A DNA stretch of 64,000 nt from an uncultured Anaerolineae bacterium (GCA_964603985.1 CAZRXG010000001.1:170363-234362), one strand, 5' to 3'; positions 1,409-54,620 are shown, numbered from the stretch's first letter. A program made the numbers and translations. Notes: generated from the sequence alone by a model not told the origin.

Positions 1409-4400
1409 ATGAACAACACACACTTGCCAAAGGAGAACCCCGCACACACCACGCAGTCACGCGTAGTTGGTGCCGTCATGGTGGTCGGCGGCGGCATCGC
1501 CGGGATGCAGGCTGCGCTGGACCTGGCCGATCAGGGCTTCAAGGTCTATCTGGTCGAGAAGCAGTCAGCCATCGGTGGGCATATGGCGCAGCTTGACAAG
1601 ACCTTTCCCACCAACGACTGTGCCATGTGCAGCATCAGCCCGAAGCTGGTGGACACCGGACGCCACCCCAACATCGAGATCCTGACCGGTACTGACGTTC
1701 TTGATGTTGAGGGGAAGAGCGGGGACTTCACCGTGACGCTGCGCCGGAGGCCGCGTTACATCGACGCGACCAAGTGCGTCGGCTGCGGTGACTGCGCTGA
1801 GGTGTGTCCGGTTTCGCTGCCCGACCCGTACGAAGAAGGGTTAAAAGACCGCCGGGCAGTTTATCGGCTGTACGCCCAGGCCGTTCCCACCGCCTACGCC
1901 ATCGAGAAGCTGGGCACCGCCCCCTGCCGGGGTGCCTGCCCCGCCGGACAGCGCGCGCAGGGCTACATTGCGCTGATCGCACAGGGACGCTACAGGGAAG
2001 CGCTGCGCGTCATCACCGAGGACAACCCCTTCCCCAGCGTTTGTGGGCGCACGTGCCACCACCCCTGCGAGGGACACTGCACGCGTGCCCTGGTCGATGA
2101 GCCGGTGAGCATCATGTCGCTCAAGCGCTTCGTGGTGGATTTTGCCCTGGCCTACGGGCGCGAGCCGGTCGAGCCTGCCCCGCGCACACAGCCCGAGTGG
2201 GTTGCCATCGTCGGCGCGGGGCCTGCCGGTCTGACTGCTGCCCACGACCTGGCGAAGATGGGATACGGCGTGACCGTCTACGAGGCGCTGCCGGTGGCTG
2301 GTGGTATGATGCGGGTCGGGATTCCGGCTCACCGGCTGCCCAAGGGCGTGCTTCAGCAGGACATCGATGACATTCTGGCCCTGGGCGTGATGCTCAAGAC
2401 CAACTCCCCGGTTAAAGATCCCACCGAGCTGCTTGAGCAGGGCTACGACGCGGTCTGCCTGGCGACCGGGATCTCGTCCCGCGACCACTCGCTGGGAATT
2501 GAAGGCGAGGACGCCGAAGGGGTGCTCTCGGCGGCTACCTTCCTGCGTAAGATCAACCTGGGAGAGCCGGTCACGGTCGGCGAGCGTGTGGCCGTGGTGG
2601 GCGGTGGAGTCACTGCCTTGGACGCGGCCTCGGTCGCCCGGCGGCTGGGCGCCACCGAGGTTTACGTGGCGCTCGACCGCCCGCGCGGTGAGCTGCCTGC
2701 CTACGAGCGAGAGGTTGCGGCCATTGAGGCGGAGGGCATCCACCTGCACGAGCGCGTCACCGCCACACGCATCCTGACCGAGAACGGCAAGGTAGTCGGG
2801 GTGGAGCTCGCCCAGACGGGCAAGGGGATGACGGTGGACGAGCAAGGACGCCGCCGCCCCAAGATCGAGCCCGGCACCGAGTTCACGCTCGAAGTTGATA
2901 CTGTCATCGGCACCGTGGGCCAGTTCTCGGACCTGTGCTTCCTTGACCAGCGCTTCGACGACCTGGAAGTGGACAAGGACACACTGGCGAGCCAGGTCCC
3001 CGGCCTGTTCGTGGTCGGTGGCCGTAAGACCGGGGCGAGCTTTATTATCGAGGCCGTGGCGCTCGGCCACCGGGTGGCAACCTCCATGCACCGCTACCTG
3101 CGAGGCGAGCCGCTGGATCGGGCCGATCCCCCGGCCCCACCCGTTTTGAAGTTCACCCGCGAGGAGTTGCTGGAGCGGGTGCAGAGCGGCGAGATCAGCC
3201 CGCAGCCGCGCGCCGAACCGGCCCTGTTGCCCATGGAGGAGCGGGTGACCAGCTTCCGCGAGGTCGTGCTGGGCCTGACCGAGCGTCAGGCGCGGGCCGA
3301 GGCGCAGCGCTGCATCCAGTGCGGGATCTGTTCGGAGTGCCTGGCCTGCGTGTACGCCTGCGGCGCCGACGCCATCGACCACAGCATGGTGGCCCAGGAG
3401 GAGCAGGTCAACGTGGGGGCGATTATCCTTGCTCCCGGCTACCAGGTCTACCACGCCGAGCTTTCCGAGGAGTACGGCTACGGGCGCTACCCCAACGTGA
3501 TCACCGCGCTCCAGTTCGAGCGGCTGCTTTCCGCCTCCGGCCCGACGATGGGCCACATCCAGCGCCCGTCCGACGGGCAGACGCCGGAGCGGATCGCCTT
3601 CTTGCAGTGCGTTGGCTCGCGCGATCAGAGCCACGACTACTGCTCGGCGGTGTGCTGCATGTACGCCACCAAAGAGGCCCTTATGGCCAAGGAGCACCAC
3701 CCCGACCTGGACATTCACGTCTTCATGATGGACATGCGTGCCTTTTCTAAGGGCTACTGGGGCTACTTTGAGACCGCGCGCGACCGCTACGGCGTGCAGT
3801 ACACCCGCTGTCGGCTCAGCGACGTGAAGGAGGACCCGCACACCCATAACCTGACTGTGCACTACCAGGACGAGGATGGAACGACCCACGACGAGACCTT
3901 TGGCATGGTTGTGCTGTCGGTCGGCATGGAGATTTCGGAGTCGGTGCGCGAGTTGGGGCGGCGGCTGGGTGTCGAGCTGGATGAGTACGGCTTCTGCCAC
4001 ACGGTACAGTTCAACCCGCTGGAAACCAGCCGCCCCGGCCTCTACGCCGTCGGGCCGTTCCGCGAGCCGAAGGACATCCCCGAGTCGGTTATCGAGGCCA
4101 GCGGGGCGGCGGCAGCGGCTGCCACGCGGCTCGGCTCGTCACGCTTCACGCTGACCACGACCCCTGAGTTCCCACCTGAGCGGGACATCAGCGGTGAGGA
4201 ACCGCGCATCGGTGTGTTCGTCTGCCACTGCGGTTCGAACATCGGCGGCTACCTCGACGTACCCTCCGTCGCCGGGTATGCGGCAACGCTGCCGGGCGTC
4301 GTCCACGCCGAGGATAACCTGTACTCCTGCTCGCAGGACAGTATTCGCCACATCGCCGAGCAGATCGAGGAGCACAATCTCAACCGGGTGGTGGTCGCCA

Positions 4401-5926
4401 GTTGCACGCCGATCACACACCAGCCGCTCTTCCGGGACTGCCTGCGGAGTGCCGGGCTGAACCCTTACCTGTTCGAGATGGCTAACATCCGCAACCAGTG
4501 CTCGTGGGTGCACTCGCATGACCAGGACATCGCCACGGACAAGGCCGAAGACCTGGTGCGGATGGCCGTCGCGCGCGCGGCGCTGCTTGAGCCGCAGCAG
4601 ACCTTCGAAGTGCCCATCCAGCATGCCGCGCTGGTGGTCGGTGGGGGGGCTGCCGGGATGACTGCCGCGCTCTCACTGGCCGGGCAGGGCTTCCCGGTTC
4701 ACCTGGTCGAGCGCGAGGCCGAACTGGGTGGCAATCTGCGTCACGTGTACAGTGCCATCGACGGCAAAGACCCGCAGCGCGTCCTGCGCCAACTCGTCGA
4801 GCAGGTCGGAGACGACCCTTTGATCACCGTTCACCTGGAGAGCGAGGTAGTCGCGTCGAGCGGCTTCATGGGCAACTTCACCAGCACGATTCGGCGTGCG
4901 GATGGGGGCCAGGCTGACATCCAACACGGGGTGATCATCCTGGCTACCGGCGCACAGGAGTACCGGGGGCCGGAGTACGGCTACGGCTCCGATCTGCGTA
5001 TCGTGACGCAGCAGGAATTTGAGGCCAGGATTGCAGAAGACGAAGATTTGCCCGCCTCGGTGGTGATGATCCAGTGCATCGGCCCTGCCGAGCATTTCTG
5101 CAGCCGCATCTGCTGCACGGTGGCGCTCAAGAACGCGCTCACACTGAAAAAGAAGAACCCGGACGCGCAGGTCGTGATCCTGTACAGGGACATCCGCACC
5201 TACGGCTTCAAGGAGCGGCTCTACACCGAAGCGCGCGAAAAGGGTGTGATCTTCGTGCGCTACGACGACGATCACCGACCGGTGGTCGAGGCGGACGGCG
5301 ATTTGAGAGTTCAGGCCTGGGACCCGGCCCTCAAGCAGCCACTTGTCCTGGAGCCGGACCTGCTGGTGCTGAGCATGCCGGTCGTGCCGCGCGACGACGT
5401 GCGCAAGCTGGCCGGGCTGTTCAAGGCCAACATCGACAACGACGGTTTCTTCCTGGAGGCGCACGTCAAGCTCCGCCCGGTCGACTTCGCCTCAGATGGG
5501 GTGTTCATGGCCGGGATGGCGCACTACCCCAAACTGCTGGACGAGGCTATGATTCAGGCGCAGGCCGCCGCCTCGCGGGCCGCACGGGTGCTCAGCCGCG
5601 AGACGTTGAAAGCGGGCGGGCGCGTGGCCGTAGTCGATCCGCTGATGTGCACCGGTTGTTTGACCTGCGTGCGGGTCTGTCCCTTCGGCGTGCCGCAGAT
5701 CAGGCGCGACCTGACCGGCGTGGGCGGTGTGGAGGGAGCGGCCTACATCGAGACCGCCGTGTGCCAGGGCTGTGGATCGTGCGTTGCCGAGTGCCCGGCG
5801 GGGGCGATCCAATTGATGCACTACACCGACGCGCAGTTGGCGGCCAAGGTTGGAGCACTCCTCGATCCGTCGATGGATTACGTGTCGCTTGGTCGGGCTG
5901 TGGCATCGGAGGGGAAGAAACGGTGA
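1409..5926 (+). CDS. hdrA: HdrL-type large heterodisulfide reductase subunit A: two HdrA FAD modules, an inserted GltD/NfnB-like NAD(P)H oxidoreductase module and ferredoxin motifs
   Basis: VVGGGIAG and DKTFPTNDCAMC (HdrA); CRGACP/CGRTCHHPCEGHC, VGAGPAG, VVGGGVTA (GltD-like); RIGVFVCHCGSNIG, second VVGGGAAG, C-terminal CxxCxxCxxxCP pairs. Confidence 0.9.
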   Translation: MNNTHLPKENPAHTTQSRVVGAVMVVGGGIAGMQAALDLADQGFKVYLVEKQSAIGGHMAQLDKTFPTNDCAMCSISPKLVDTGRHPNIEILTGTDVLDVEGKSGDFTVTLRRRPRYIDATKCVGCGDCAEVCPVSLPDPYEEGLKDRRAVYRLYAQAVPTAYAIEKLGTAPCRGACPAGQRAQGYIALIAQGRYREALRVITEDNPFPSVCGRTCHHPCEGHCTRALVDEPVSIMSLKRFVVDFALAYGREPVEPAPRTQPEWVAIVGAGPAGLTAAHDLAKMGYGVTVYEALPVAGGMMRVGIPAHRLPKGVLQQDIDDILALGVMLKTNSPVKDPTELLEQGYDAVCLATGISSRDHSLGIEGEDAEGVLSAATFLRKINLGEPVTVGERVAVVGGGVTALDAASVARRLGATEVYVALDRPRGELPAYEREVAAIEAEGIHLHERVTATRILTENGKVVGVELAQTGKGMTVDEQGRRRPKIEPGTEFTLEVDTVIGTVGQFSDLCFLDQRFDDLEVDKDTLASQVPGLFVVGGRKTGASFIIEAVALGHRVATSMHRYLRGEPLDRADPPAPPVLKFTREELLERVQSGEISPQPRAEPALLPMEERVTSFREVVLGLTERQARAEAQRCIQCGICSECLACVYACGADAIDHSMVAQEEQVNVGAIILAPGYQVYHAELSEEYGYGRYPNVITALQFERLLSASGPTMGHIQRPSDGQTPERIAFLQCVGSRDQSHDYCSAVCCMYATKEALMAKEHHPDLDIHVFMMDMRAFSKGYWGYFETARDRYGVQYTRCRLSDVKEDPHTHNLTVHYQDEDGTTHDETFGMVVLSVGMEISESVRELGRRLGVELDEYGFCHTVQFNPLETSRPGLYAVGPFREPKDIPESVIEASGAAAAAATRLGSSRFTLTTTPEFPPERDISGEEPRIGVFVCHCGSNIGGYLDVPSVAGYAATLPGVVHAEDNLYSCSQDSIRHIAEQIEEHNLNRVVVASCTPITHQPLFRDCLRSAGLNPYLFEMANIRNQCSWVHSHDQDIATDKAEDLVRMAVARAALLEPQQTFEVPIQHAALVVGGGAAGMTAALSLAGQGFPVHLVEREAELGGNLRHVYSAIDGKDPQRVLRQLVEQVGDDPLITVHLESEVVASSGFMGNFTSTIRRADGGQADIQHGVIILATGAQEYRGPEYGYGSDLRIVTQQEFEARIAEDEDLPASVVMIQCIGPAEHFCSRICCTVALKNALTLKKKNPDAQVVILYRDIRTYGFKERLYTEAREKGVIFVRYDDDHRPVVEADGDLRVQAWDPALKQPLVLEPDLLVLSMPVVPRDDVRKLAGLFKANIDNDGFFLEAHVKLRPVDFASDGVFMAGMAHYPKLLDEAMIQAQAAASRAARVLSRETLKAGGRVAVVDPLMCTGCLTCVRVCPFGVPQIRRDLTGVGGVEGAAYIETAVCQGCGSCVAECPAGAIQLMHYTDAQLAAKVGALLDPSMDYVSLGRAVASEGKKR

Positions 5927-6378
5927 CAGAAAATACCCGGCTGTATATTATCTCGTACTGCTGCGAGCATTGCGCCTACGCCGCAGCCGACCTCGCGGGC
6001 GGGCTGAGGATGCAGTATCCTCCGGAGGTCAGGATCGTCCTGCTGCCCTGCACGGGCAGGATCGACGTGCTGACGGTGCTGCGCGCCTTTGAGGATGGCG
6101 CCGACGGCGTGATGGTGGCCGGTTGACTGCCTGGGGACTGCCATTACCTGGAAGGTAATGCTAACGCCAGGCGCCGCGTAGAGCGCGTTAGGGAACTGCT
6201 GGCCCAGATTGGCCTGGAGCCAGAGCGGATGCAAATGTTCAATATGTCGGCTGCGATGGCGGGCGAATTTGTCGCCAGAGCAGAGGAGATGACCCAGCGG
6301 ATTGCGGCCCTGGGGCCGAGTCCTTTACACGTCACATCGATCACTTCATCGAAGATAAACACGGAGAGTAAAACATGA
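5923..6378 (+). CDS. mvhD: MvhD-family [2Fe-2S] protein, selenocysteine-containing (in-frame TGA at 6124-6126, codon 68)
   Basis: GTG overlaps hdrL stop; YCCEHCAY..PCTGRID..GADGVMVAG-TGA-LPGDCHYLEGN..GLEPERM; frame continues to a TGA overlapping the metV ATG; SECIS-like hairpin follows the TGA. Confidence 0.9.
6129..6172 (+). promoter_or_regulatory. bacterial SECIS element (candidate)
   Basis: Lower stem GCCTGG/CCAGGC, upper stem CATTACC/GGTAATG, apical loop TGGAA, starting 3 nt after the in-frame TGA. Confidence 0.8.
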
Positions 6379-7058
6379 TTGTTGCCGAACAAAAACCACT
6401 CGAGGAGATCAAGAAGCTCGTCGGAGACGCCGAAAAGGTGCTGGTTGTAGGATGCGGCACCTGTGTGACGGTCTGCTTCGCTGGCGGTTCGCGCGAGGCG
6501 GCCATTGTGGCGGCATCGCTGCGCATGGCCTCCAAGCTCGACGGCGGCGAGAAAGACGTCACCGACGTAACCGTCCAGCGCCAGTGCGAGTGGGAATACC
6601 TGGACGAGATCAAGGACGCAGTCGGCGAGGCCGACCTGGTGCTGTCGCTGGGCTGCGGGATCGGCGTGCAGGCGATAGCCGAGCACTTCCCCGACACCTG
6701 GGTCGTGCCCGGCCTGAACACCACCTTCCTGGGTTTGCCTGAGGAGCAGGGCATCTGGTCCGAACGCTGCGCGGCCTGCGGCGACTGCATCCTGGGGCTG
6801 ACGGGGGGCATCTGCCCCATCGCGCGTTGTTCCAAGTCGCTGCTTAACGGGCCGTGTGGTGGATCGGAGAACGGGCACTGTGAGATCGACCCCGACGTCC
6901 CCTGTGCCTGGCAGCTGATCTACGACCGGCTGAGCAGTATGGATAAGCTCGACGTTCTGCTGGAAATTCAACCCCCGAAAAACTGGAGCACCTCGCGTGA
7001 TGGTGGGCCGCGCAAGATCGTGCGCGAGGACCTGCGCCTGGTGTCGGAAGAGGAGTAG
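6375..7058 (+). CDS. metV: methylenetetrahydrofolate reductase Fe-S/Zn subunit MetV
   Basis: MIVAEQKPLEEI, GCGTCV, GCGIG, CAACGDC, GGICP, LLNGPCGG motifs; adjacent to metF. Confidence 0.9.
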   Translation: MIVAEQKPLEEIKKLVGDAEKVLVVGCGTCVTVCFAGGSREAAIVAASLRMASKLDGGEKDVTDVTVQRQCEWEYLDEIKDAVGEADLVLSLGCGIGVQAIAEHFPDTWVVPGLNTTFLGLPEEQGIWSERCAACGDCILGLTGGICPIARCSKSLLNGPCGGSENGHCEIDPDVPCAWQLIYDRLSSMDKLDVLLEIQPPKNWSTSRDGGPRKIVREDLRLVSEEE

Positions 7059-7061
7059 GCC

Positions 7062-8078
7062 ATGACCGCTGAAGCTAGCAGCAACGGGCATCTGGTTGGC
7101 TCAAACCTGGAGCGTGTGCTTCGGGCCGGGCACTTCGCCGTCACAGCCGAGCTTGGCCCTCCCCAGAGCGCCGACGGCGACGAGATACGCCACAAGGCCA
7201 CTTTGCTGCGGGGCAACTGCGACGCGGTGAACATCACCGATAACCAGACGGCAATCGTCCGCATGTCCAGCATTGCCGCCGGAGCCATCGTCGTGCAGGA
7301 GGGGCTGGAGCCAATCGTCCAGATGACCTGTCGCGACCGCAACCGCCTGGCGATCCAGAGCGACCTGCTGGGCGCGTACGCGCTGGGAATGCGCAACCTG
7401 CTGTGTCTCACCGGCGACCACCAGACCTTTGGCAACCACCCCACGTCCAGGAACGTGTTTGACATCGACTCGCTGCAACTGTTGCAGATGGTGACCGCCA
7501 TGCGCGACGACTGCGTCTTCCAGTGCGGTGACGCGTTCAAAGGGCAGGAGCCACGCTTCTTCATCGGCGCGGCGGCTGCGCCCTTTGCCGACCCGATTGA
7601 CTTCCGTCCCTACCGCCTGGCAAAGAAGGTCAAGGCCGGAGCGAACTTCATCCAGACCCAACTCGTCTACGACATCGAGGCGTTTGAGGAATACATGGCA
7701 AAGGTACGCGAGATGGGGCTGCACGAGCAACTTTACATCCTGGCCGGGGTTGGGCCGCTGAAAAGTCCGGGCATGGCCCGCTATATGAAGAACAGCGTCC
7801 CCGGCATCCTCGTCAAAGACGAGTACATCGAGCGGATGAAGGCTGCCGGTGAACCCTGGGCGGGGAAATCCAAGGACGAGATGACCCCGGAGGATAAAAA
7901 AGCTCGATCCGAGGCCTGGAAGCAGGAGGGCATCAACATCTGCGTCGAACTGATCCAGCGGCTGCGTGAAGTAGAAGGTGTGGCCGGTGTGCATATCATG
8001 GCGATTGAGTGGGAAGAGGCCGTCGAACCGATTGCCTCCGGTGCCGGTCTGCTGCCACGCCCCGAAGTATCCCTCTAG
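7062..8078 (+). CDS. metF: methylenetetrahydrofolate reductase catalytic subunit MetF
   Basis: VTAELGPP, NITDNQ, QMTCRDRNRLAIQ, LTGDH, FIQTQ, GVHIMA motifs. Confidence 0.93.
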   Translation: MTAEASSNGHLVGSNLERVLRAGHFAVTAELGPPQSADGDEIRHKATLLRGNCDAVNITDNQTAIVRMSSIAAGAIVVQEGLEPIVQMTCRDRNRLAIQSDLLGAYALGMRNLLCLTGDHQTFGNHPTSRNVFDIDSLQLLQMVTAMRDDCVFQCGDAFKGQEPRFFIGAAAAPFADPIDFRPYRLAKKVKAGANFIQTQLVYDIEAFEEYMAKVREMGLHEQLYILAGVGPLKSPGMARYMKNSVPGILVKDEYIERMKAAGEPWAGKSKDEMTPEDKKARSEAWKQEGINICVELIQRLREVEGVAGVHIMAIEWEEAVEPIASGAGLLPRPEVSL

Positions 8079-8093
8079 TCCTGGAGATGGCTC

Positions 8094-9518
8094 ATGGAAG
8101 AAAAACAACAACCAACCACCGAACCAATGACCATCGACTCTGAGCTGGCGCAGCGCGTCATGGACGAGCTGGGGCAGAACGTCTATCTGTGCTACCAGTG
8201 CGTCAAGTGCACCAGCGGCTGCCCGGTATCGGAGTTCTTCGATTGGCAGCCCAACCAGATCATGCGTGCCGTGCAGTTGGGCCAGGAGGACATCGCCCTG
8301 CGCTCCAAGACGCCGTGGCTGTGCGCCTCATGCCAGACGTGTACGACGCGCTGCCCGCAGGGGTTGGACATCGCGGCGATCATGGAGTTCCTGACCCGCG
8401 AGGCGCTTAAACGGGACATCAAACCCCAGGTGCCCGAAACAGACTACTTCAACAAGGCCTCCATGCGCGAGGTGAAACTGTGGGGGCGGGCCTATGAGCT
8501 GGGCCTGATGATGGAGATGAAGCTCCGCACGCTCGACATCATGGGTGACATGGACCTGGGTGTCAGGATGCTTCTGAAGAACAAGCTGGCTCTTCTGCCC
8601 AGCCCGACGCGCCCGCCGGACAAGGTAAAGCCTATGCCCGGCGCAGCGCGTGCCATCGCCTACTATCCGGGCTGCTCGCTGCACTCCACGGCACCGGAGT
8701 TTGACATCTCAACGCGGGCCGTGTGCGAGGCGCTCGACATGACCCTGATCGAGCCGAAGGGCTGGGTGTGTTGCGGCAGTTCGGCTGCCCATCGCGCCGA
8801 CCCGGCTGAAGCGCTACGCTTGCCGATGGTAAACCTGTCCATCATCGAGCAGAGCGGATTCAACGAAGTGACGATGCCGTGCGCGATGTGCTTCAGCCGC
8901 CATAAGTTTGCCCAGCACGAGATCAGGCACGACGAGCAGCACAAGGCTGAGGTAGAGGAAGCATTGGACTACAATTACCAGGACACGGTGCACGTCAGCA
9001 CGCTGATCGAGGCAATCCACGATCACGTTGGAACAGAGGCCGTCAGCGAGAAAATCGAGAAGCCGCTCGACGGGCTGCGTGTGGCCTGTTACTATGGCTG
9101 CCTGCTGACGCGCCCGCCCGAAGTCACCGGGGTGGAACATCCCGAAAACCCGACCGACATGGACGAGCTGATGGTGGCACTGGGGGCAGAGGTCGTCGAT
9201 TGGTCCTACAAGACCAACTGCTGTGGGGCGGGTCTGTCGCTGACGCGCCCTGAGATCGTGCTTGAACTGAGCAGCGCCATCATCGAGCATGCCCGCGAAG
9301 CCGGTGCCGAAGTGATCGCAGTGGCCTGCCCGATGTGCCACGCCAACCTGGATGCCCGCCAGTTCCAGATGGGCCTGGAAGCGCCCGTGCCGGTGCTGTA
9401 CTTTACACAGTTGATGGCGCTGGCCCTGGGGCTGCCGGAGAAGGCTGCCGCACTGAGCAGGAATTTGGTCGACCCGCGCCCAATCCTGAAGAGCAAGGGC
9501 TTTCTCGGCCAGCGCTGA
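8094..9518 (+). CDS. hdrCB: fused heterodisulfide reductase subunits C and B (HdrC-HdrB)
   Basis: N-terminal CYQCVKCTSGCP and CASCQTCTTRCP (HdrC); two CCG domains YYPGC..CCGSS..PCAMC and YYGC..CCGAG..ACPMC (HdrB). Confidence 0.88.
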   Translation: MEEKQQPTTEPMTIDSELAQRVMDELGQNVYLCYQCVKCTSGCPVSEFFDWQPNQIMRAVQLGQEDIALRSKTPWLCASCQTCTTRCPQGLDIAAIMEFLTREALKRDIKPQVPETDYFNKASMREVKLWGRAYELGLMMEMKLRTLDIMGDMDLGVRMLLKNKLALLPSPTRPPDKVKPMPGAARAIAYYPGCSLHSTAPEFDISTRAVCEALDMTLIEPKGWVCCGSSAAHRADPAEALRLPMVNLSIIEQSGFNEVTMPCAMCFSRHKFAQHEIRHDEQHKAEVEEALDYNYQDTVHVSTLIEAIHDHVGTEAVSEKIEKPLDGLRVACYYGCLLTRPPEVTGVEHPENPTDMDELMVALGAEVVDWSYKTNCCGAGLSLTRPEIVLELSSAIIEHAREAGAEVIAVACPMCHANLDARQFQMGLEAPVPVLYFTQLMALALGLPEKAAALSRNLVDPRPILKSKGFLGQR

Positions 9519-9603
9519 GGCGGCTGGCCGACCAGTAACGCAAGCAACCAGCCGGAGGAGACACAGAAGCTAAACTCTCTGTAAAGATTCTCCCGCCACA
9601 GGT

Positions 9604-10158
9604 GTGCTGCAGGGGGTGACCGTGGTCCTTGTAGATATGCTGGACGAAGTTCTGGAAGCGGCGTGGCGGACAATTTGCAGCACGTATAACATAACCGCCG
9701 GGTCTCCGACCGTACAGGTTCTGTTCGAGGGGGCCGACTTAGATGCGTCGACCCAGGCGGCGGAGACGGTCATCGTCAACATGCTGTCGGAGGCCATAGA
9801 GAAGATCGACCGCTTTTCCCCCTGGTACAAGATGCCGGCCAGGGCATTTGGCCTGATCGCGGTGCGCGACAGCACTACCAATTGTCTGCGTTGGGTTCTC
9901 GCACCTGAAGCTGTGCAGCGCTGGCAGCAGTTGTTGGGAGATCTTACAGTTGCCATTCAGAGAAACAGCGGGCTACTCCAGGCCACCAAGCTGGTCGACG
10001 AACTGGTGAGGAAGGCCCCCGCTGACGACCCGTGCGTGATGGCCTGTTGCGGCTGTGTCCCCAGACGGACTATCCTGGTCAAACAGTCGGTTCTGCTCGG
10101 CACCGAGGTCGTGTGCGGCGCGTGCAAACAGCCCTTCCGCCCGGTAGAGTGCGAGTAG
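9604..10158 (+). CDS. hypothetical protein with C-terminal Cys-rich, possible zinc-binding motif
   Basis: 184-aa ORF filling an intergenic space; CCGC-x(19)-CGAC near the C-terminus; start uncertain. Confidence 0.6.
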   Translation: MLQGVTVVLVDMLDEVLEAAWRTICSTYNITAGSPTVQVLFEGADLDASTQAAETVIVNMLSEAIEKIDRFSPWYKMPARAFGLIAVRDSTTNCLRWVLAPEAVQRWQQLLGDLTVAIQRNSGLLQATKLVDELVRKAPADDPCVMACCGCVPRRTILVKQSVLLGTEVVCGACKQPFRPVECE

Positions 10159-13255: not shown

Positions 13256-13807
13256 TCAGGCGGTCACCAGACTGAGGGCAACCTCGGCGCCTTTGTCCAG
13301 CGCCTGGTAGTTGATGTCCAGCATATTCCGCCGATGCTCAGGTATGTGTCCGTCGAGTGCGTGCTTGATGGCATCGATAGAGAGGATGGGGTGGACGGTG
13401 AGCATGGCCCCAAGCATGACGACGTTGGCCAGGCGAAGGTTGCCCAGTTCGTCCGCCAGGCCGGCGGCCGGAACGGCAAGCTCGGTGATGTCGGTGCGCC
13501 CGCTTGCCTGTGAGATCAGGGAAGCGTTGCGGACCAGCACCCCGCCCGGCGCAACAAGCGATTCGTACTTCTCAAAAGAGGGGTTGTTGAAGACGAGCGC
13601 CACTTTCGGGCGGCTGACGATGGGTGAGCCGATAGGCTTATCGCTGAGTACCACGTAGCAGTGAGCCGTCCCGCCGCGCATTTCGGGGCCATAAGAGGGA
13701 ATCCAGGTGACCTCCATGCCCTCGTCCATCCCGGCGTATGCCAGCAGTTGACCGGCGAACATCACACCCTGGCCGCCAAAACCGGCGAACAAGAATTCTT
13801 CTTGCAT
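13256..13807 (-). CDS. 2-oxoacid:ferredoxin oxidoreductase gamma subunit
   Basis: FAGFGGQGVM, SYGPEMRGG, ANVVMLGA. Confidence 0.92.
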   Translation of the reverse strand: MQEEFLFAGFGGQGVMFAGQLLAYAGMDEGMEVTWIPSYGPEMRGGTAHCYVVLSDKPIGSPIVSRPKVALVFNNPSFEKYESLVAPGGVLVRNASLISQASGRTDITELAVPAAGLADELGNLRLANVVMLGAMLTVHPILSIDAIKHALDGHIPEHRRNMLDINYQALDKGAEVALSLVTA

Positions 13808-13820
13808 CGTTTCTATCCTG

Positions 13821-14609
<789 letters not shown>

Positions 14610-14630
14610 GTCTGATCTCCTGCCTGCGGC

Positions 14631-15704
14631 CTAGCCGGGCTGAAGGGTCGCGAGCTTCTCATACTCGTCCTCGATGGCCGCCAGAATCTCGTCCGGCATG
14701 GGGATAACGCCCCCCATACGCCCGTAGAAGGCCACGGGAATCTGTCCACCGACCGCCAGCCGGACATCTTCGAGCATTTGCCCCGCGTTCATCTCGACAA
14801 CCAGGCAGCCGTTAGCCGTGTCGGCAAGCTCGGAGATACGGTCTTCGGGGAAAGGCCACAGTGTCTGCGGGCGCAGCAGTCCAACCTTAAGCCCTTTCTC
14901 ACGGGCGGCTTCGACGGCACTGTAGGCGATACGCCCGGCGGTGCCGTAGCCGATCACCAGCAGGTCTGCGTCGTCGGTCGCGTACTCAAACCAGCGCTGT
15001 TCGTTTTTCTTAATCTCCTTGAGCCGTTCCTGTATCCTGAGGTTGTAGGCTTCCTCCTCCTCGCCCTTCAGGTAAATCGAGGAAACGAGATTTGGCTCCC
15101 GTCCTCTGGCACCGGTCAGGGCCCAGTCAGGGTGCCCCTTCTTGACCTTTTGCATAGGGGGCAGTTCAGCCGGTTCCATCATCTGCCCGATCTGCCCATC
15201 AGCAGCGACGATGACCATGTGGCGGTATTTTTCAGCCAGGTCAAAGGCCAGGACGGTGAAGTCAATGGCCTCTTGCACGGAAGCGGGGCCGAGCACAAGC
15301 GGGTGGAAATCGCCGTGCCCTGCCGAGCGGGTCACCTGGAAATAGTCACCCTGGGAGGGAAGAATGTTGCCCAACCCCGGACCGCCGCGCATGATGTCAA
15401 CGATCACGCAGGGCAGGTACGACCCGGCGATGTAGGACAGCCCTTCTTGCATCAGGCTGATTCCAGGGCTGGACGAGGATGTCATCACCCTGATGCCCGT
15501 GCAGGCCGCACCGTAAACCATGTTGATGGCGGCGACCTCGCTCTCGGCCTGGAGAAAAACCCGGTTCAGTTCGACCATGCGGCGTGATAGGTGCTCCAGC
15601 AGCTCGGTCTGAGGGGTGATGGGATATCCGAAATAGGCTTGCAGCCCGGCGCGCACGGCAGCTTCGGCAATAGCGACGTTGCCTTTAAGCATCTCCTTAG
15701 CCAT
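14631..15704 (-). CDS. vorB: 2-oxoacid:ferredoxin oxidoreductase alpha subunit (3-methyl-2-oxobutanoate dehydrogenase VorB type)
   Basis: [45 protein letters not shown]. Confidence 0.88.
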
Positions 15705-23465: not shown

Positions 23466-24119
23466 GTGCACGAAGAACTATTCGAGGCCATGGCCCGGAG
23501 TGTCATCGACGGTGAAGAAGAGATCGCCGTGGAGTTAGCACAGCGGGCCGTCACCGGGGACATCGATCCCCTGGAAGCCATCAACCGGGGGTTTGTCATC
23601 GGCGTGAACGAGGTCGGCGAGCGGTTTGGCTGCGGTGAGGTGTTCCTGCCCGACCTGGTGATGGCGGGCAAGGCGATGAAGGCCGCCATCGCCTTGCTGG
23701 AGCCGGAGATGACCCGCCGGGGCACCGAGCGCCAGGTGTTGGGCCGGGTGGTGCTGGGCACCGTCGAGGGCGACATCCACGAGATCGGTAAGATGCTGGT
23801 CGGCATCATGCTGACGGCGAACGGTTTTGAGGTCCACGACCTGGGTGTGGACGTGCCGGTCGCGAAGTTCGTCGAGAAGGCGCGCGAGGTGAGCGCCGAC
23901 ATCGTCGGCCTGAGCGCCCTGCTGACCACGACGATGCCCCAGCAGAAGCGCGTCATTGAGCTGCTGGAGGACGGCGGTCTGCGCCATAGCGTCAAGGTGA
24001 TGGTGGGCGGCTCGCCCGTCACCCGGAGTTGGGCCGACGAGATCGGCGCGGACGGCTACAGCGAGGACGCCATCGGCGCGGTGAAGGTCGCCAAAGATCT
24101 GGTCGAGGCGTCGTCATGA
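23466..24119 (+). CDS. cobalamin-binding corrinoid protein (MttC/MtbC-like)
   Basis: B12 cap (GEVFLPDL), EGDIHEIGK (DxHxxG), DLGVDVP, LSALLTTTM, VGGSPV; GTG start after AAGGAG. Confidence 0.92.
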   Translation: MHEELFEAMARSVIDGEEEIAVELAQRAVTGDIDPLEAINRGFVIGVNEVGERFGCGEVFLPDLVMAGKAMKAAIALLEPEMTRRGTERQVLGRVVLGTVEGDIHEIGKMLVGIMLTANGFEVHDLGVDVPVAKFVEKAREVSADIVGLSALLTTTMPQQKRVIELLEDGGLRHSVKVMVGGSPVTRSWADEIGADGYSEDAIGAVKVAKDLVEASS

Positions 24120-25570
24120 GCCGCGAGATTACCTCTATCAGCAGCCCCCGGTTGAGCCTCAACATTCTCAGCCGGGAGGACGTGGAGCGCATCCACACCG
24201 CCACACTGGATGTCATCGAGAAGACCGGCGTGCGCTTTCCCTCGCAGCGTGCGCTCGACATCTGGGAGGCTCACGGCGCGACCGTCGACCGGGACACCAT
24301 GATCGTCCGGGTTCCCGGTCAGGTGATCGAAGAAGCGCTCAAGCACGCGCCGCCGACCTACATGCTGGCCGCCCGCGACCCGGCGCAGGATCTGCCGCTG
24401 GATGGCAATCACGTCTTCGTAGGCACCGACGGCTGCGGCGTGGAGGTGCTCGACCTGTACACCGCCGAGCGCCGCCGATCATGCTGGCAGGACGTGGCCG
24501 ACATCGCACGCGTCGCCGATGCTGTGGAAGAGATCGCCTTCCACTGGGTGGCCGTCTCGGCGCAGGATCGCCCGCCCGAATCGCGCGGCCTGCACGAATT
24601 GCTCGCCATCTGGCAAAACTCGACCAAGCACGCCCAGACGGAAAGCATTTACGCCACCGAGGCGGAAGCGCGGGCCGGTGTCGAGATGGCTGCCACCATT
24701 GCCGGGGGGCACGACGCTCTGCGCCAGCGCCCGGTGCTCTCGGTCATGCAGTGCACGGCACCGCCGCTGGGGCACGACGGCGGCAGCCTCAACGCCGCCC
24801 TGATCGCCGCCGAGGCGGGTCTGCCAGTCGGGTTCATGACGATGGCCTCCTGCGCCTCGACCGGCCCGACGACGATGGCCGGTACGCTGGTCGTCGGCAA
24901 CGCGGAGGTGATCAGCGCGCTGGCGCTGATCCAGCTTGCCTATCCCGGTGTGCCGGTCTTTTACGCCGCCGCCCAGACGGCGATGGATCTCCGCACGGGC
25001 GCTTACACCGGCGGCGGCCCGGAGGACTTCCTGTTCGGCGCGGCCACCAACGTGCTGTCCGACTTCTACGACGTGCCGCTCTCGATGGGGTCGTTTGCCA
25101 CCGGTGCAAAGGAACCGGACTGGCAGGCGGGCATCGAGAACAGCCTCTCGACCTTTATGGCGTCGGTCGTCATGTCGGATATGCTGCTGGGCGTGGGGCT
25201 GCTGCACGGCAGTCGCATCTGGTCGTTTGAGCAGATGCTGATGGACTGTGAGATCTTCAGCATCGTGCACAAGATGATGGCCGGTATCCCGGTCAGCGAC
25301 GAGACGCTGGCCCTCGACGTGATCGACGCGGTGGGGCCGGGTGGTCACTTTCTGGCACAAAAGCACACCCGCAAACACATGCACGACCTGTGGCAGCACA
25401 CGCTGATGGACCGCCGCCCCTACAGCGTGTGGGAGGAGAAGCGCGATGGGGCCCGCGAGTGGGCGCGCGAAAAGGCGCAGCAGATTCTGGAGACGCACCA
25501 GCCTGAGACGCTCGACCCGAAGCTGGCCGCCGAATTGGAGCGTATTATCGCCTCGGTTGAAGAGGCGTGA
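24116..25570 (+). CDS. mttB: trimethylamine methyltransferase family protein (MttB-like, no pyrrolysine)
   Basis: ATG overlaps corrinoid gene stop; ERIHTATLDVIEKTGV, GTLVVGNAE, PDWQAG, SFEQ..DCEI, VGPGGHFL; no in-frame TAG. Confidence 0.9.
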   Translation: MSREITSISSPRLSLNILSREDVERIHTATLDVIEKTGVRFPSQRALDIWEAHGATVDRDTMIVRVPGQVIEEALKHAPPTYMLAARDPAQDLPLDGNHVFVGTDGCGVEVLDLYTAERRRSCWQDVADIARVADAVEEIAFHWVAVSAQDRPPESRGLHELLAIWQNSTKHAQTESIYATEAEARAGVEMAATIAGGHDALRQRPVLSVMQCTAPPLGHDGGSLNAALIAAEAGLPVGFMTMASCASTGPTTMAGTLVVGNAEVISALALIQLAYPGVPVFYAAAQTAMDLRTGAYTGGGPEDFLFGAATNVLSDFYDVPLSMGSFATGAKEPDWQAGIENSLSTFMASVVMSDMLLGVGLLHGSRIWSFEQMLMDCEIFSIVHKMMAGIPVSDETLALDVIDAVGPGGHFLAQKHTRKHMHDLWQHTLMDRRPYSVWEEKRDGAREWAREKAQQILETHQPETLDPKLAAELERIIASVEEA

Positions 25571-53263: not shown

Positions 53264-54407
53264 CACGCCATCGCTGCTTGAATCCATAAAGGCGGAATAC
53301 AGCACGCGCTTCAGCGCCGGGCCGGAGGTGATCGCCCGCGCGCCGGGGCGCGTAAACCTGATCGGCGAGCACACCGACTACAATGATGGGTTTGTCTTCC
53401 CGATGGCGATTGATCGGGCGATCTGGATGGCGATCCGCTCGCGCGGTGACCGCCGTGTCGTGCTCCACTCGCTTGACTTCGGCCAGGTGATCGACTTCTC
53501 CCTCAATAACTTCCAGAAGGGTGAGACCAGCCCCGCGGAGTACGTCAAGGGGGTTGCGTGGTCGTTGCAGGAGGCGGGCTACGCGCTGCATGGGTTCGAG
53601 GGCGTGATGCGGGGTGACGTACCAATCGGTGCCGGGTTGTCTTCGTCGGCGGCGTTGGAGGTGGTCACGGCCCGCGTTTTTGCGGCACTCTCAGGCTTCG
53701 AGTGGAATGCGCCGCGTATGGCGCGGCTGGCGCAGCGTGCCGAGAACCAGTGGGTCGGCATGAACTGCGGCATCATGGATCAGATGATCTCGGCAGCGGG
53801 AGAGGCAGGTCACGCGCTGCTGATCGACTGCCGCTCGCTCGACACGGAGGCCGCCCCCCTGCCCAGGGGTACGGCGGTGGTTGTGATGGACACTGGCGTG
53901 CGGCGCGGACTGGTCGACTCTGCTTACAACGAGCGCCGCGCGCAGTGTGAGACGGCGGCAGCATTCTTCGGCGTGCCCGCCCTCCGCGACGTGACACTTG
54001 AGACGTTTGAGGAGCGCGCGTCGGAACTGGGTGAGCCGATACGTAGGCGCGCGCGCCACGTGATTACGGAGAACCGCCGCACGTTGCAGGCCCGCGACGC
54101 AATGCTGGCCGATGACGCGCAAACGCTCGGCGAGTTGATGTGTGCAAGCCACGTCAGCCTGCGCGACGATCTGGAAGTATCATGCAACGAGCTTAACGCG
54201 ATGGTTGACCTGGCGCTTGAGCACTCGGGGTGCTATGGTGCACGCATGACGGGGGGCGGCTTTGGCGGCTGTGCCGTTGCGTTGGTCAGGGACGACGCCG
54301 TCGACGATTTCGCCGCGCAGGTTGCCCCGCGCTACCGGCGGCAGACCGGTCTCGAACCCAGGCTGTACATCTGCGAGGCGGCATCCGGCGCGTCGGTCCT
54401 ACCGTAG
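53253..54407 (+). CDS. galK: galactokinase
   Basis: APGRVNLIGEHTDYN, VPIGAGLSSSAA, CGIMDQ, GARMTGGGFGGC. Confidence 0.96.
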
Positions 54408-54445
54408 GTGCGACGTGTCGATGCCGGTTCTTACGACCTGGTATG

Positions 54446-54465
54446 AAAAAGCCCCATAATGGGGC
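54446..54465 (-). terminator. intrinsic terminator of the tRNA pair
   Basis: Minus strand GCCCCA-tta-TGGGGC followed by TTTTT. Confidence 0.75.
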
Positions 54466-54471
54466 CAAGTG

Positions 54472-54544
54472 TGGGCCCGGTAGGATTCGAACCTACGACC
54501 AACCGGTTATGAGCCGGCCGCTCTAACCGCTGAGCTACGGGCCC
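54472..54544 (-). tRNA. tRNA-Ile2 (anticodon CAT, lysidine-modified type); CCA not encoded
   Basis: GGGCCCGTAGCTCAGCGGTTAGAGCGGCCGGCTCATAACCGGTTGGTCGTAGGTTCGAATCCTACCGGGCCCA; acceptor and anticodon arms resemble Ile2 rather than Met. Confidence 0.88.
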
Positions 54545-54549
54545 TCAAG

Positions 54550-54620
54550 AGCGGGCAACGGGACTCGAACCCGTAACAACAGCTTGGAAGGCTGATGTGT
54601 TACCGTTACACCATGCCCGC
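54550..54620 (-). tRNA. tRNA-Gly (anticodon TCC); CCA not encoded
   Basis: GCGGGCATGGTGTAACGGTAACACATCAGCCTTCCAAGCTGTTGTTACGGGTTCGAGTCCCGTTGCCCGCT. Confidence 0.93.

Follow-up and report, generated by a model that had tools for sequence, protein, structure and literature searches.

The closest described counterpart of the gene cluster considered here is the type IV methylene-THF reductase (MTHFR) of Moorella thermoacetica, MetFV-HdrCBA-MvhD (Mock et al. 2014), the proteins of which co-purify (PMC5861303). In its large HdrA, an extra thioredoxin reductase (TrxR) module is interrupted by a GltD domain with sites for FAD, NAD(P)H and [4Fe-4S] clusters (PMC9430772). Oxidation of NADH by the complex was reported in 2014 (PMC5861303; PMC13040438). 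NADH is oxidised with benzyl viologen and methylene-THF is reduced with reduced viologen (PMC5861303, PMC13040438), and a third partner is required to couple the two activities (PMC13040438). Ferredoxin is not the acceptor in Moorella, and no type IV enzyme has ever been shown to bifurcate electrons (PMC13040438). On purification, MetVF of S. ovata is obtained by itself; it takes electrons from reduced ferredoxin, and its binding to the Hdr proteins is loose (PMC9430772).

Large HdrA fusions are known from other organisms as well. HdrL of Desulfobacterium autotrophicum is a fusion of HdrA with a glutamate-synthase-type protein, it has an NADH site, and mvhD always follows its gene (Strittmatter et al. 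2009, PMC2702500). The organism is rich in selenoproteins, with selenocysteine (Sec) in the products of mvhD1, 2, 3 and 5, and HdrL was tied to sulfite reduction and DsrC and thought unique (PMC2702500). HdrA9-11 of ANME-1 possess an NfnB-like insertion of ~500 aa inside the inserted ferredoxin domain (Chadwick et al. 2022, PMC9012536). According to the accessible part of Sewell et al. (2017, PMC5736913), the marine Anaerolineae DscP3, An-B22 and SM23_63 carry hdrA-hdrCB-mvhD-metVF clusters.

The window, i.e., the whole 64-kb stretch of DNA that was analysed, contains a cluster at 1409-9518 whose genes were called from open reading frames (ORFs) together with Pfam and NCBIfam scans:

1409..5926, + strand: hdrL, 1505 aa, a giant HdrA with two fused HdrA modules and a GltD/NfnB-like insert
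5923..6378, + strand: mvhD, 151 codons with a GTG start inside GTGA, a [2Fe-2S] MvhD/FlpD protein
6375..7058, + strand: metV, Fe-S/zinc subunit of MetVF (DUF5981/MTHFR_C, PF12225, 3e-39)
7062..8078, + strand: metF, catalytic methylene-THF reductase flavoprotein with an MTHFR family match
8094..9518, + strand: hdrCB fusion, with Fer4 and two CCG domains

The functions of metF, metV, hdrA, hdrB, hdrC and mvhD are all present in this one cluster and are co-directional. Direct reading of the sequence gives a GTGA overlap at the hdrL/mvhD junction (5923-5926), an ATGA overlap at the mvhD/metV junction (6375-6378), and gaps of 3 nt between metV and metF and 15 nt between metF and hdrCB. ORFs, domain scans and junctions thus bear out the original prediction of five tightly packed genes with overlapping stop and start codons, and from the spacing alone we infer that the five are co-transcribed. 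Cofactor motifs are intact throughout the cluster proteins. The HdrC-like part of HdrCB has two [4Fe-4S] motifs (C33-C43 and C77-C87), and the HdrB-like part has two intact CCG motifs (C194…CC226/227…C263xxC266 and C332…CC376/377…C412xxC415). For MetV, a search for a solved structure found none.

Direct protein alignments with M. thermoacetica DSM 21394 (locus L212) identified a collinear orthologue in the window for each of the six Moorella subunits, and the Moorella counterpart is the best reciprocal-type match of each cluster product. HdrL is 47% identical to the 1487-aa Moorella HdrA (Moth_1194 type) and collinear with it over 1504 residues, while the identities of MvhD, MetV, MetF, HdrC and HdrB are 50%, 58%, 57%, 44% and 40%, respectively. 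HdrL also matches the published domain plan of the large Moorella HdrA (PMC9430772). In both proteins the GltD insert occupies the same place, the nucleotide site is non-YRR, module 2 is devoid of the inserted ferredoxin domain, and E696/K750 and E1204/K1246 of Moorella align with E704/K755 and E1205/K1241 of HdrL. The order mvhD-metV-metF is common to both loci. In contrast, the Moorella order is hdrC-hdrB-hdrA-mvhD-metV-metF, whereas here hdrL comes first and hdrCB last; hdrC and hdrB are separate there and fused here; Moorella MvhD has Cys where Sec is predicted here; the nucleotide motif is CLE there and LDR here; the GltD-like modules are just ~40% identical; and the host here is an Anaerolineae-like member of Chloroflexota, with no acs genes adjoining the cluster in the window. 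Judged from sequence, the cluster is a real but unremarkable instance of a type IV (Moorella-type) MTHFR gene cluster as already known, and its local peculiarities are the predicted selenocysteine in MvhD and the unusual nucleotide-site motif.

The assignment to the Moorella type, as originally made, is supported by the six collinear orthologues and the shared HdrA plan. The accompanying claim that the fused NAD(P)H dehydrogenase sets this locus apart from Moorella does not hold, as the 1487-aa Moorella HdrA has this NAD(P)H-oxidising insert as well; a built-in module for nucleotide input is therefore not new. Nor is the pyridine nucleotide input of the Moorella complex uncertain, as had been assumed, given the NADH oxidation reported in 2014. 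It is the third redox partner that the field is asking about, and because that partner is still needed, the operon is not the complete, self-contained bifurcation/confurcation circuit that had been proposed.

Domain mapping of HdrL confirms a 1505-aa HdrA with two FAD modules and an inserted GltD/NfnB-like flavoprotein, arranged as follows:

1409..1915, + strand: HdrA module 1, N-terminal part, residues 1-169 (HdrL 22-167 aligns with 5odc_A 145-290)
1916..3310, + strand: GltD/NfnB-like NAD(P)H:FAD module, residues 170-634
3311..4195, + strand: HdrA module 1, C-terminal part, residues 635-929
4196..5926, + strand: HdrA module 2, residues 930-1505 (930-1084 align with HdrA 2-156 and 1302-1482 with HdrA 472-647)

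The N-terminal part of module 1 contains an FAD-binding GxGxxG (residues 27-32), C71/C74 as the equivalent of Cys197, and the first CxxCxxCxxxC motif of the inserted ferredoxin domain (C123-C133). The second motif of that domain (C635-C651) is found in the C-terminal part, along with CIQC and a TrxR-like domain bearing E704/K755. The GltD/NfnB-like insert sits between the two cluster motifs and splits module 1, which lacks both the HdrA N-terminal domain and the C-terminal ferredoxin domain. Module 2 comprises an HdrA N-terminal cluster domain, a TrxR-like FAD domain (GxGxxG at 1078; E1205/K1241) and a C-terminal 2x[4Fe-4S] ferredoxin domain; the inserted ferredoxin domain (an alignment gap opposite residues 113-654 of module 1) and the Cys197 equivalent are absent. 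Both TrxR-like domains therefore carry the E/K signature, defined with reference to E356/K409 of M. thermolithotrophicus, by which bifurcating HdrA flavins are recognised (PMC9430772). With two [4Fe-4S] sites, an FAD GxGxxG at 269-274 and an NAD(P)H GxGxxA at 398-403, all intact, the insert is predicted to be a complete NAD(P)H:FAD module, and it matches NfnB and StnC-like PDB chains with E values of 1e-70 to 1e-103.

Among proteins of known structure, the insert is closest to the GltD-like domains of StnC of the Sporomusa Stn transhydrogenase (8oh5) and of NfnABC/Bfu (9n5u, 9bov), with E values of 1e-82 to 1e-103. The permuted order, with RC(I/L)QC after the flavin domains, and a Lys ligand at the proximal cluster are common to all, but these relatives bind NADPH through YRR and supply electrons to a NuoF-type bifurcating module rather than to HdrA. 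The Lys in HdrL is K239, which aligns with StnC K170 and replaces the Glu ligand of the proximal [4Fe-4S] cluster in NfnB (Glu117 in T. maritima). In StnC, the K170 ligand marks a non-bifurcating input flavin (PMC10482914). No NfnA-like partner ([2Fe-2S], FAD, NADH site) was found among the five cluster genes by Pfam.

The nucleotide-binding site of the insert deviates from these relatives:

2666..2686, + strand: VALDRPR, nucleotide 2'-phosphate site, residues 420-426 of HdrL

LDR (residues 422-424) aligns with the YRR of all NADPH-binding PDB homologues, so that the YRR triad of NfnB is absent, and the NADH-oxidising Moorella HdrA has CLE at this position. The classical determinant of NAD(H) binding is an acidic residue where Rossmann strand beta-2 ends. 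In NfnB, the 2'-phosphate of NADPH is bound by YRR; specificity for NADP(H) is seen in DsrL proteins that have YRR, and those lacking it favour NAD(H) (PMC7596348). Loss of the triad thus points to NADH as the nucleotide of HdrL, and the preference for NADH over NADPH read earlier from VALDRPR appears reasonable. Use of NADPH, or of both nucleotides as in canonical NfnB, GltD and StnC, is conceivable because the motif keeps R424 and, two residues on, R426; moreover, the nearest relatives of the insert outside the LDRP clade are YRR-type Chloroflexota modules (57-61% identity), and YRR-type HdrLs adjoin metVF in many genomes too. We consider this unlikely, since Leu and Asp replace the Tyr and first Arg of the triad and both the acidic beta-2 residue and the DsrL precedent (PMC7596348) speak for NADH.

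The second peculiarity resides in mvhD, which is an open frame only with readthrough of a TGA codon:

6124..6126, + strand: in-frame TGA, mvhD codon 68 (…VMVAG-U-LPGDCHY…), predicted selenocysteine
6128..6173, + strand: SECIS-like stem-loop, from RNA folding and codon choice in TGA genes

With Cys substituted for UGA, the Pfam FlpD profile covers MvhD at full length (1-123/123, 1.1e-48), and the alignment of homologues runs on past the TGA. Of 170 distinct homologous genes, 58 have TGA at the aligned codon and the other 112 have TGC or TGT. An apical hairpin at 6142-6160 (CAUUACC-UGGAA-GGUAAUG) lies 18-36 nt past the UGA and has G residues in its loop. At its synonymous sites, TGA genes use CAT (49/58), GGT (45/58; GGC 0) and AAT (57/58), whereas Cys genes use CAC 60/CAT 48, GGC 55/GGT 15 and AAC 65/AAT 47; the hairpin-preserving choice is thus restricted to TGA genes, and 5.9 of 7 pairs form in these versus 3.5 of 7 in Cys genes. 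Compensatory change is seen for one pair type, A-U to U-A, in 5 genes. The minimum free energy of the whole 60 nt had no discriminating power (p = 0.44). TGA also serves as an ordinary stop codon in this genome, as both hdrL and mvhD terminate with it. A search for selA, selB, selD and tRNA-Sec within the 64-kb window found none. ORF finders end mvhD at 6126, as would be expected of a pseudogene cut at the TGA or of a sequencing error. Such an origin is extremely improbable: the frame beyond the TGA is open and conserved up to the ATGA overlap with metV, the very same Cys position is TGA in 58 independent homologues, and only these show the hairpin-preserving codon choice. From the Sec/Cys pairing in the 170 homologues and the conserved hairpin, the in-frame TGA almost certainly encodes selenocysteine. 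We also note that selenocysteine in MvhD was absent from the original prediction.

A synteny survey, suggested earlier for Chloroflexota, located hdrL-mvhD-metV-metF in that phylum and in Desulfobacterota, Planctomycetota, Bacillota and other phyla; metV and metF are adjacent in 66 of 182 HdrL-like matches. The marine Anaerolineae clusters share the phylum, gene set, fused hdrCB and Pyr_redox_2 in HdrA, by description only, and the accessible part of that paper (PMC5736913) mentions neither a selenocysteine in MvhD nor the nucleotide-site motif. Like the HdrL of D. autotrophicum (Strittmatter et al. 2009), the protein here is large and HdrA-like with a glutamate-synthase-type NAD(P)H domain, and mvhD follows its gene; in contrast to that case, metVF comes after hdrL-mvhD here and in many Desulfobacterota loci, and HdrL here is without Sec. 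The name HdrL is apt (PMC2702500), yet the protein is of the same type as Moorella HdrA. The ANME-1 proteins share the NfnB-like insertion and the fused HdrA pairs with complementary Cys197 and N-terminal domain, but they are archaeal, HdrA9-11 do not share a cluster with MetF, and the carrier proposed for them is NADPH (PMC9012536).

The cluster probably encodes a type IV MTHFR composed of MetF-MetV, HdrL, MvhD and fused HdrCB. The FAD of the GltD-like insert would accept a hydride from NADH, rather than from NADPH, and act as a plain two-to-one-electron converter; a non-bifurcating role is suggested by the Lys ligand of the proximal cluster, as in StnC, in place of the NfnB Glu. Electrons would pass through the two [4Fe-4S] clusters of the insert and the split inserted-ferredoxin domain to the FAD of HdrA module 1. 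The two HdrA modules would form an intramolecular pseudo-heterodimer, with module 1 contributing the Cys197 equivalent and module 2 the N-terminal cluster domain, a complementarity that matches the fused-HdrA pattern of PMC9012536. One HdrA flavin with the E/K signature would split or merge electron pairs. The high-potential branch would reach the MetF flavin and methylene-THF by way of HdrCB and/or MetV, and the other branch, probably via the selenocysteine-containing MvhD, would run to or from the third partner, a low-potential carrier or, in confurcation, quinol.

Co-oxidation of NADH and menaquinol by a membrane-linked enzyme that reduces methylene-THF in a redox loop was proposed for Moorella in 2026, where ferredoxin is not the acceptor (PMC13040438), and confurcation with ubiquinol and H2 was proposed for S. 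ovata, whose MvhD is mostly found at the membrane (PMC9430772). It is rather unlikely here, as the cluster genes include no membrane subunit, the E/K signature marks bifurcating flavins (PMC9430772), and the proposal is without experimental demonstration in any organism. The loose binding of Hdr proteins in S. ovata implies that a stable six-protein complex is not guaranteed here. It is even conceivable that MetVF alone is a type II enzyme using reduced ferredoxin, as the S. ovata preparation would allow (PMC9430772), and that HdrL-MvhD-HdrCB merely shares the operon as an NAD(P)H-dependent (hetero)disulfide, DsrC-like or thiol reductase; the two CCG motifs of the heterodisulfide site are retained in HdrB, and many loci carry HdrL-MvhD without metVF. 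We regard both parts of this reading as very unlikely, because the Moorella proteins co-purify (PMC5861303), MetF and MetV contact HdrA, HdrB and MvhD in S. ovata pull-downs (PMC9430772), and the hdrL-mvhD-metV-metF order with its overlapping codons is conserved across phyla.

The type IV enzyme may operate in either direction in vivo. The 64-kb window contains no Wood-Ljungdahl genes, and the physiological direction is therefore not fixed by context. In the reverse direction, methyl-THF would be oxidised to methylene-THF, with co-oxidation of a low-potential donor driving endergonic NAD+ reduction; the source of methyl-THF would be methylated amines or acetate oxidation via the reverse Wood-Ljungdahl pathway. 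Role and source are each possible, though the less favoured option. The reaction is reversible in principle and methylotrophy has been discussed (PMC9430772); a non-pyrrolysine MttB-family methyltransferase (24029-25570) and a 2-oxoacid:ferredoxin oxidoreductase (13256-15704) are encoded in the window, and complete-oxidising Desulfobacterota have the same synteny. However, the methyltransferase gene lies at a distance of 14 kb and does not accompany the cluster in a conserved manner, the window shows neither a corrinoid protein nor acs genes, and sequence cannot reveal direction.

Downstream of the cluster lies a further gene:

9604..10158, + strand: orf184, conserved hypothetical protein of 184 aa, 85 nt downstream of hdrCB

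Its product has four invariant Cys (C149, C151, C171, C174), no Pfam match, and a predicted structure (pLDDT 92) with no significant fold match in the PDB. Homologues occur in 112 clusters and stand directly after hdrCB in loci L006, L008, L009, L011, L012, L023 and L153 (41-53% identity). Within this Anaerolineae clade, orf184 is possibly a sixth cluster member, and its product may regulate the complex or act as its partner.

Depending on the genome, the 2'-phosphate site of the insert is YRR (NADPH-like), CLE (as in NADH-using Moorella) or of the rare LDR class. A joint reading, which we offer tentatively, is that the insert is an exchangeable nucleotide-currency cassette, swapped in this lineage, with orf184 as the clade-specific regulator or partner. 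An ancestral CLE-type insert appears to have been replaced via recombination by a cassette of the YRR lineage, which then appears to have lost the phosphate-binding Tyr and Arg (YRR to LRR to LDR). If this is true, the enzyme would have returned to NADH after the loss of YRR, and the insert would set the pyridine-nucleotide currency of type IV MTHFRs.

The original prediction placed five co-directional genes at window positions 1409-9518. These limits proved exact, and the gene identities are backed by the ORF list, the sequence and Pfam/NCBIfam matches:

1409-5926 (+), hdrL, 1505 aa (ORF list and sequence)
5923-6378 (+), mvhD, GTG start within GTGA; FlpD/MvhD match over the whole profile at 1e-48 (Pfam/NCBIfam)
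6375-7058 (+), metV, ATGA overlap with mvhD; MTHFR C-terminal family DUF5981
7062-8078 (+), metF, 3-nt gap from metV; methylene-tetrahydrofolate reductase (MTHFR) match
8094-9518 (+), hdrCB, 15-nt gap from metF; HdrC-like dicluster domain and two CCG domains

The overlapping hdrL-mvhD and mvhD-metV junctions, also predicted, are read directly from the sequence as GTGA and ATGA, and in HdrCB ten of the ten Cys of the two CCG motifs are intact. A gene for a cNMP-binding histidine kinase is situated 65 nt upstream of hdrL. Scans of the cluster for sigma-70 promoters and intrinsic terminators gave no more matches than chance and are uninformative, so that it is the gene packing that points to co-transcription.

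HdrL was aligned to the HdrA of Methanothermococcus thermolithotrophicus (5odc_A) and to structures of the NfnB, GltD and StnC types, and its own halves were aligned to each other. The resulting domain map agrees with the prediction of a 1505-aa protein that carries two HdrA modules and a GltD/NfnB-like insert, with intact FAD and NAD(P)H motifs:

HdrL residues 1-169, start of a thioredoxin-reductase-like HdrA module: FAD motif GxGxxG, C71/C74, first inserted-ferredoxin motif CxxCxxCxxxC
HdrL residues 170-634 (window 1916-3310), complete NfnB/GltD-like module: two [4Fe-4S] sites, FAD motif GxGxxG at 269, NAD(P)H motif GxGxxA at 398
HdrL residues 635-929, RCIQC motif, second ferredoxin motif and remainder of HdrA module 1
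HdrL residues 930-1505, second HdrA: N-terminal cluster domain, FAD domain, C-terminal 2x[4Fe-4S] domain

The RCIQC motif, which is N-terminal in NfnB, here follows the NfnB/GltD-like module, which is thus permuted as in StnC. HdrA module 1 is without the N-terminal domain and the C-terminal ferredoxin domain, and its C71/C74 include the equivalent of HdrA Cys197; the second module has neither the inserted ferredoxin domain nor a Cys197 equivalent. The two modules are complementary, since each holds domains or a Cys absent from the other, a pattern described for fused HdrAs that serve as heterodimer partners to themselves (PMC9012536). The Glu/Lys pair that marks bifurcating HdrA flavins is present in both FAD domains (E704/K755 and E1205/K1241).

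This architecture is closely matched in Moorella thermoacetica, whose 162.8-kDa HdrA carries the E/K pairs E696/K750 and E1204/K1246 and has a C-terminal part without the inserted ferredoxin domain (PMC9430772). The locus of M. thermoacetica DSM 21394 (L212) was retrieved by a scan with a Bacillota MetF, and was not among the matches listed for the two scans with HdrL as query. Residues 20-1485 of HdrL and 11-1484 of Moorella HdrA form a single collinear alignment at 47% identity, in which the four E/K signature residues are in exact register. Identities of the remaining proteins are 50% for MvhD, 58% for MetV and 57% for MetF, while the N-terminal part of HdrCB shares 44% with Moorella HdrC and its C-terminal part 40% with HdrB. 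We consider it very probable that the cluster is an orthologue of the type IV MTHFR (MetFV-HdrCBA-MvhD).

The Moorella proteins form a complex and require a third partner for coupling (PMC5861303, PMC13040438). Two viologen-linked activities are established for the complex, NADH oxidation with benzyl viologen and methylene-THF reduction with reduced viologen (PMC5861303, PMC13040438). The missing piece is the third substrate: this partner “was not ferredoxin”, and confurcation with menaquinol was proposed as a model in 2026 (PMC13040438). The premise of the original prediction, that pyridine nucleotide input into Moorella-type complexes is uncertain, is wrong, as Moorella HdrA itself has the insert and oxidises NADH. 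The cluster is real and its interpretation is supported in part; the novelty claimed for it is unsupported, NADH input inside Moorella-type HdrA being already known. Further precedents exist. Fused-hdrCB clusters of the same kind were described from marine Anaerolineae in 2017 (PMC5736913), the name HdrL was coined for an HdrA/GltD fusion adjoining mvhD in D. autotrophicum (PMC2702500), and an NfnB-like insertion in the inserted ferredoxin domain has been described for ANME-1 (PMC9012536). Together with the Moorella orthology, these three precedents place the window cluster in an already known kind. Sequence searches of the PDB turned up neither a MetV relative nor a MetFV-Hdr complex.

At the nucleotide site of the insert, VALDRPR (HdrL residues 420-426) aligns with (V/I)(L/V)YRR(T/S)x of all NADPH-binding PDB relatives. 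In T. maritima NfnB the 2'-phosphate is held by Y310/R311/R312, and DsrL with YRR is NADP(H)-specific, while DsrL without it prefers or requires NAD(H) (PMC7596348). The triad is L-D-R in the window HdrL as against C-L-E in the NADH-oxidising Moorella HdrA. Three triad classes were found in the fetched loci, each of them occurring beside metVF, namely YRR (101 hits), x-x-Glu, mostly CLE (66 hits), and x-Asp-x, comprising LDRP, LDKP and FDRP (9 hits); in the Bacillota loci fetched with the MetF query, 26 HdrA modules have YRR and ~24 are CLE-like. The occurrence of both YRR and CLE beside metVF predicts NADPH- and NADH-dependent type IV MTHFRs. The NADH preference originally read from the Asp of the LDR site is reasonable, has precedent and seems somewhat probable; dual nucleotide specificity would be possible given that R424 and R426 are kept.

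The proximal cluster of NfnB has Glu117 as a ligand, which is linked to bifurcation at the NfnB FAD (PMC10482914, PMC7596348). The equivalent residue in StnC is Lys170, and the StnC FAD is a non-bifurcating input (PMC10482914). This position is occupied by Lys239 in HdrL, by K230 in Moorella and by Lys in the StnC-like PDB chains. Lys239 in place of Glu117 makes it unlikely that the GltD-like flavin is an NfnB-style bifurcation site; the StnC-like insert is better seen as a plain NAD(P)H dehydrogenase from which single electrons pass into HdrA, and we infer that any bifurcation or confurcation would take place at an HdrA flavin. In the proposed path, NADH would bind at the LDR site of the insert, the GltD-like FAD would serve as non-bifurcating input, and electrons would enter HdrA module 1 via the split ferredoxin domain; pairing of the HdrA modules would take place within a single chain. 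The high-potential branch would run through HdrCB and/or MetV to MetF, and a second branch via MvhD to or from the third partner, for which any single specific identity would be doubtful.

Pairwise identities further suggest that HdrL is a mosaic, with insert and scaffold closest to different sets of loci.

Identity of HdrL homologues in the fetched loci to the insert (residues 255-560) and the scaffold (residues 700-1500) of the window HdrL
Top 11 loci by scaffold (L006, L012, L008, L009 and others; all CLE-type): insert 37-43%; scaffold 69-80%
Top 7 loci by insert (L003, L004, L032, L001, L002, L005, L026; all LDRP/LDKP): insert 77-81%; scaffold 57-68%

The top 7 loci by insert represent one set of Anaerolineales. 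MetV, MetF, HdrCB and MvhD track the scaffold, with 70-85% identity to the CLE-type group, and outside its own clade the insert is nearest to YRR-type Chloroflexota modules (61%, 57%) and an LRRP variant (57%). These identities are most simply explained by a recombinational swap of the NAD(P)H cassette, followed by decay of its YRR triad.

Full-length HdrL homologues form at least 120 clusters at 70-80% identity in a protein search; the sources named are MAGs of Anaerolineales, Promineifilaceae or Chloroflexota, and the annotation does not go beyond “FAD-dependent oxidoreductase”. When species-representative genomes were scanned twice, at least 597 and at least 593 HdrL relatives were confirmed, and hosts among the matches listed include Chloroflexota, Desulfobacterota, Syntrophales, Acidobacteriota, Planctomycetota, Bacillota and several archaea. 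In the synteny survey, 66 of 182 HdrL-like hits (158 loci) have MetV and MetF as same-strand neighbours; 44 more of these hits are too near a contig end to judge. The hdrL-mvhD-metVF synteny is found in Anaerolineae, Dehalococcoidales, Desulfobacterales, Desulfarculus, Sedimentisphaerales, Anaerohalosphaeraceae and Victivallales, and also in Nitrospinaceae-labelled and Symbiobacterium genomes.

The surroundings of the cluster vary. No Wood-Ljungdahl genes were found within the 64-kb window, which also holds no relatives of the genes upstream of hdrC in the Moorella locus, putatively acsE, acsD and acsC as read from size and position only. Relatives of these three lie near hdrL/metVF in nine loci, one from Symbiobacterium (L058) and eight from Chloroflexota (L007, L014, L018, L020, L033, L111, L129, L158), and putative AcsE- and AcsD-like genes border the cluster in some Chloroflexota loci besides the window. 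A second pair, of hdrL or hdrA with mvhD, closely precedes the MTHFR cluster in many Anaerolineales: in L002-L005, L010, L026 and L032 it lies upstream of the metVF-linked hdrL by ~7 kb, and in L008 at 6174-9849; the paired MvhD copies are often opposite in Sec versus Cys state, and the window has the histidine kinase gene in that place. We also note that what looks like a ~1.9-kb insertion within the hdrL of L007, L008, L012, L018, L022, L023 and L033 (6.4-kb matches) is an artefact of separate 1055-aa hdrA-like and mvhD-like genes upstream of a normal 1505-aa hdrL.

A feature absent from the original prediction is the in-frame TGA of mvhD at 6124-6126 (…VMVAG-[TGA]-LPGDCHY…), where ORF callers truncate the gene; the frame is open only with read-through. 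TGA is a normal stop in this genome, as both hdrL and mvhD terminate in it. Among 170 distinct homologues, taken from the fetched loci and the window, the aligned codon is TGA (58) or TGC/TGT (112) and nothing else, and Moorella MvhD has Cys. The TGA genes have in common a hairpin, CAUUACC-UGGAA-GGUAAUG, located 18-36 nt past the UGA (structure region 6128-6173) inside the stretch that encodes the conserved CHYLEGN motif. Its stem-forming synonymous sites are nearly fixed only in TGA genes, in a window with GC3 of ~0.8.

Codons at stem-forming sites and stem pairing in TGA genes (58) and Cys genes (112)
His codon: TGA genes CAT 49, CAC 9; Cys genes CAC 60, CAT 48
Gly codon: TGA genes GGT 45, GGC 0; Cys genes GGC 55, GGT 15
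Asn codon: TGA genes AAT 57, AAC 1; Cys genes AAC 65, AAT 47
Pairable stem positions of 7: TGA genes 5.9; Cys genes 3.5

Five genes show a compensatory A-U to U-A change at one stem pair. The Sec-mvhD genes of Syntrophales/Smithella (L087, L090, L095-L097, L099, L100, L103, L110) have another hairpin, GCCACUA…UAGUGGC, at equal distance from the UGA, which suggests an independently shaped SECIS element. Sec and Cys genes are not told apart by the folding energy of the 60 nt past the UGA (p = 0.44), and the z-score of the window hairpin is only -1.1; the codon-level test is the informative one. Codon pairing and hairpin together are typical of a Sec/Cys pair with a bacterial SECIS, and selenocysteine is predicted in MvhD. 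No genes of the Sec machinery were found within the 64-kb window. Sec-containing MvhD proteins are known in D. autotrophicum (PMC2702500), so the predicted Sec-MvhD is a variant rather than a new kind.

Downstream of hdrCB lies a further conserved gene, and two other loci of the window bear on the metabolic setting:

9604-10158 (+), orf184, 184 codons, starting 85 nt past hdrCB
13256-15704 (-), 2-oxoacid:ferredoxin oxidoreductase, three genes (POR gamma, TPP-binding beta, POR_N alpha)
24029-25570 (+), full-length MttB-superfamily methyltransferase, no in-frame stop

Seven related Anaerolineae loci have a homologue of orf184, 41-53% identical, immediately behind hdrCB; its 112 homologous clusters are all ~183 aa and all “hypothetical”. 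The protein has four invariant Cys (CxC…CxxC) and no Pfam match even at E 5. Its AlphaFold model is confident (pLDDT 92), and a Foldseek search of the PDB gave nothing significant, the best hit being a weak MarR-like resemblance at E 0.07. The gene may be a clade-specific sixth member of the cluster, perhaps encoding a regulator or a small metal-binding partner. The MttB-family gene is of the non-pyrrolysine type, having no in-frame stop, and may be a methyl source for THF, bearing on the direction of the MTHFR; the 2-oxoacid:ferredoxin oxidoreductase would supply or take up reduced ferredoxin locally. The window further holds regulators, a SulP transporter, a multihaem cytochrome and housekeeping genes. 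An Rfam scan of the window gave two tRNAs only, and a permuted ‘tmRNA*’ called by ARAGORN at 54089-54561 (-), overlapping tRNA-Met, therefore looks spurious.

The new elements here are minor variants: the predicted Sec-MvhD in this clade, the LDR motif, the putatively swapped cassette and the conserved neighbour orf184. They are of low to moderate interest; physiologically, the enzyme may work in either direction. The type IV architecture itself is very widespread, with full-length relatives of HdrL in over 590 species-level genomes, in many of them ahead of mvhD-metVF, and many members, including that of the window, have a predicted Sec in MvhD that standard gene callers cut off. NADH and NADPH versions are predicted within the family. 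The value of the cluster lies in these comparative points, which could guide the choice of a tractable enzyme for identifying the third redox partner and for a first type IV MTHFR structure.
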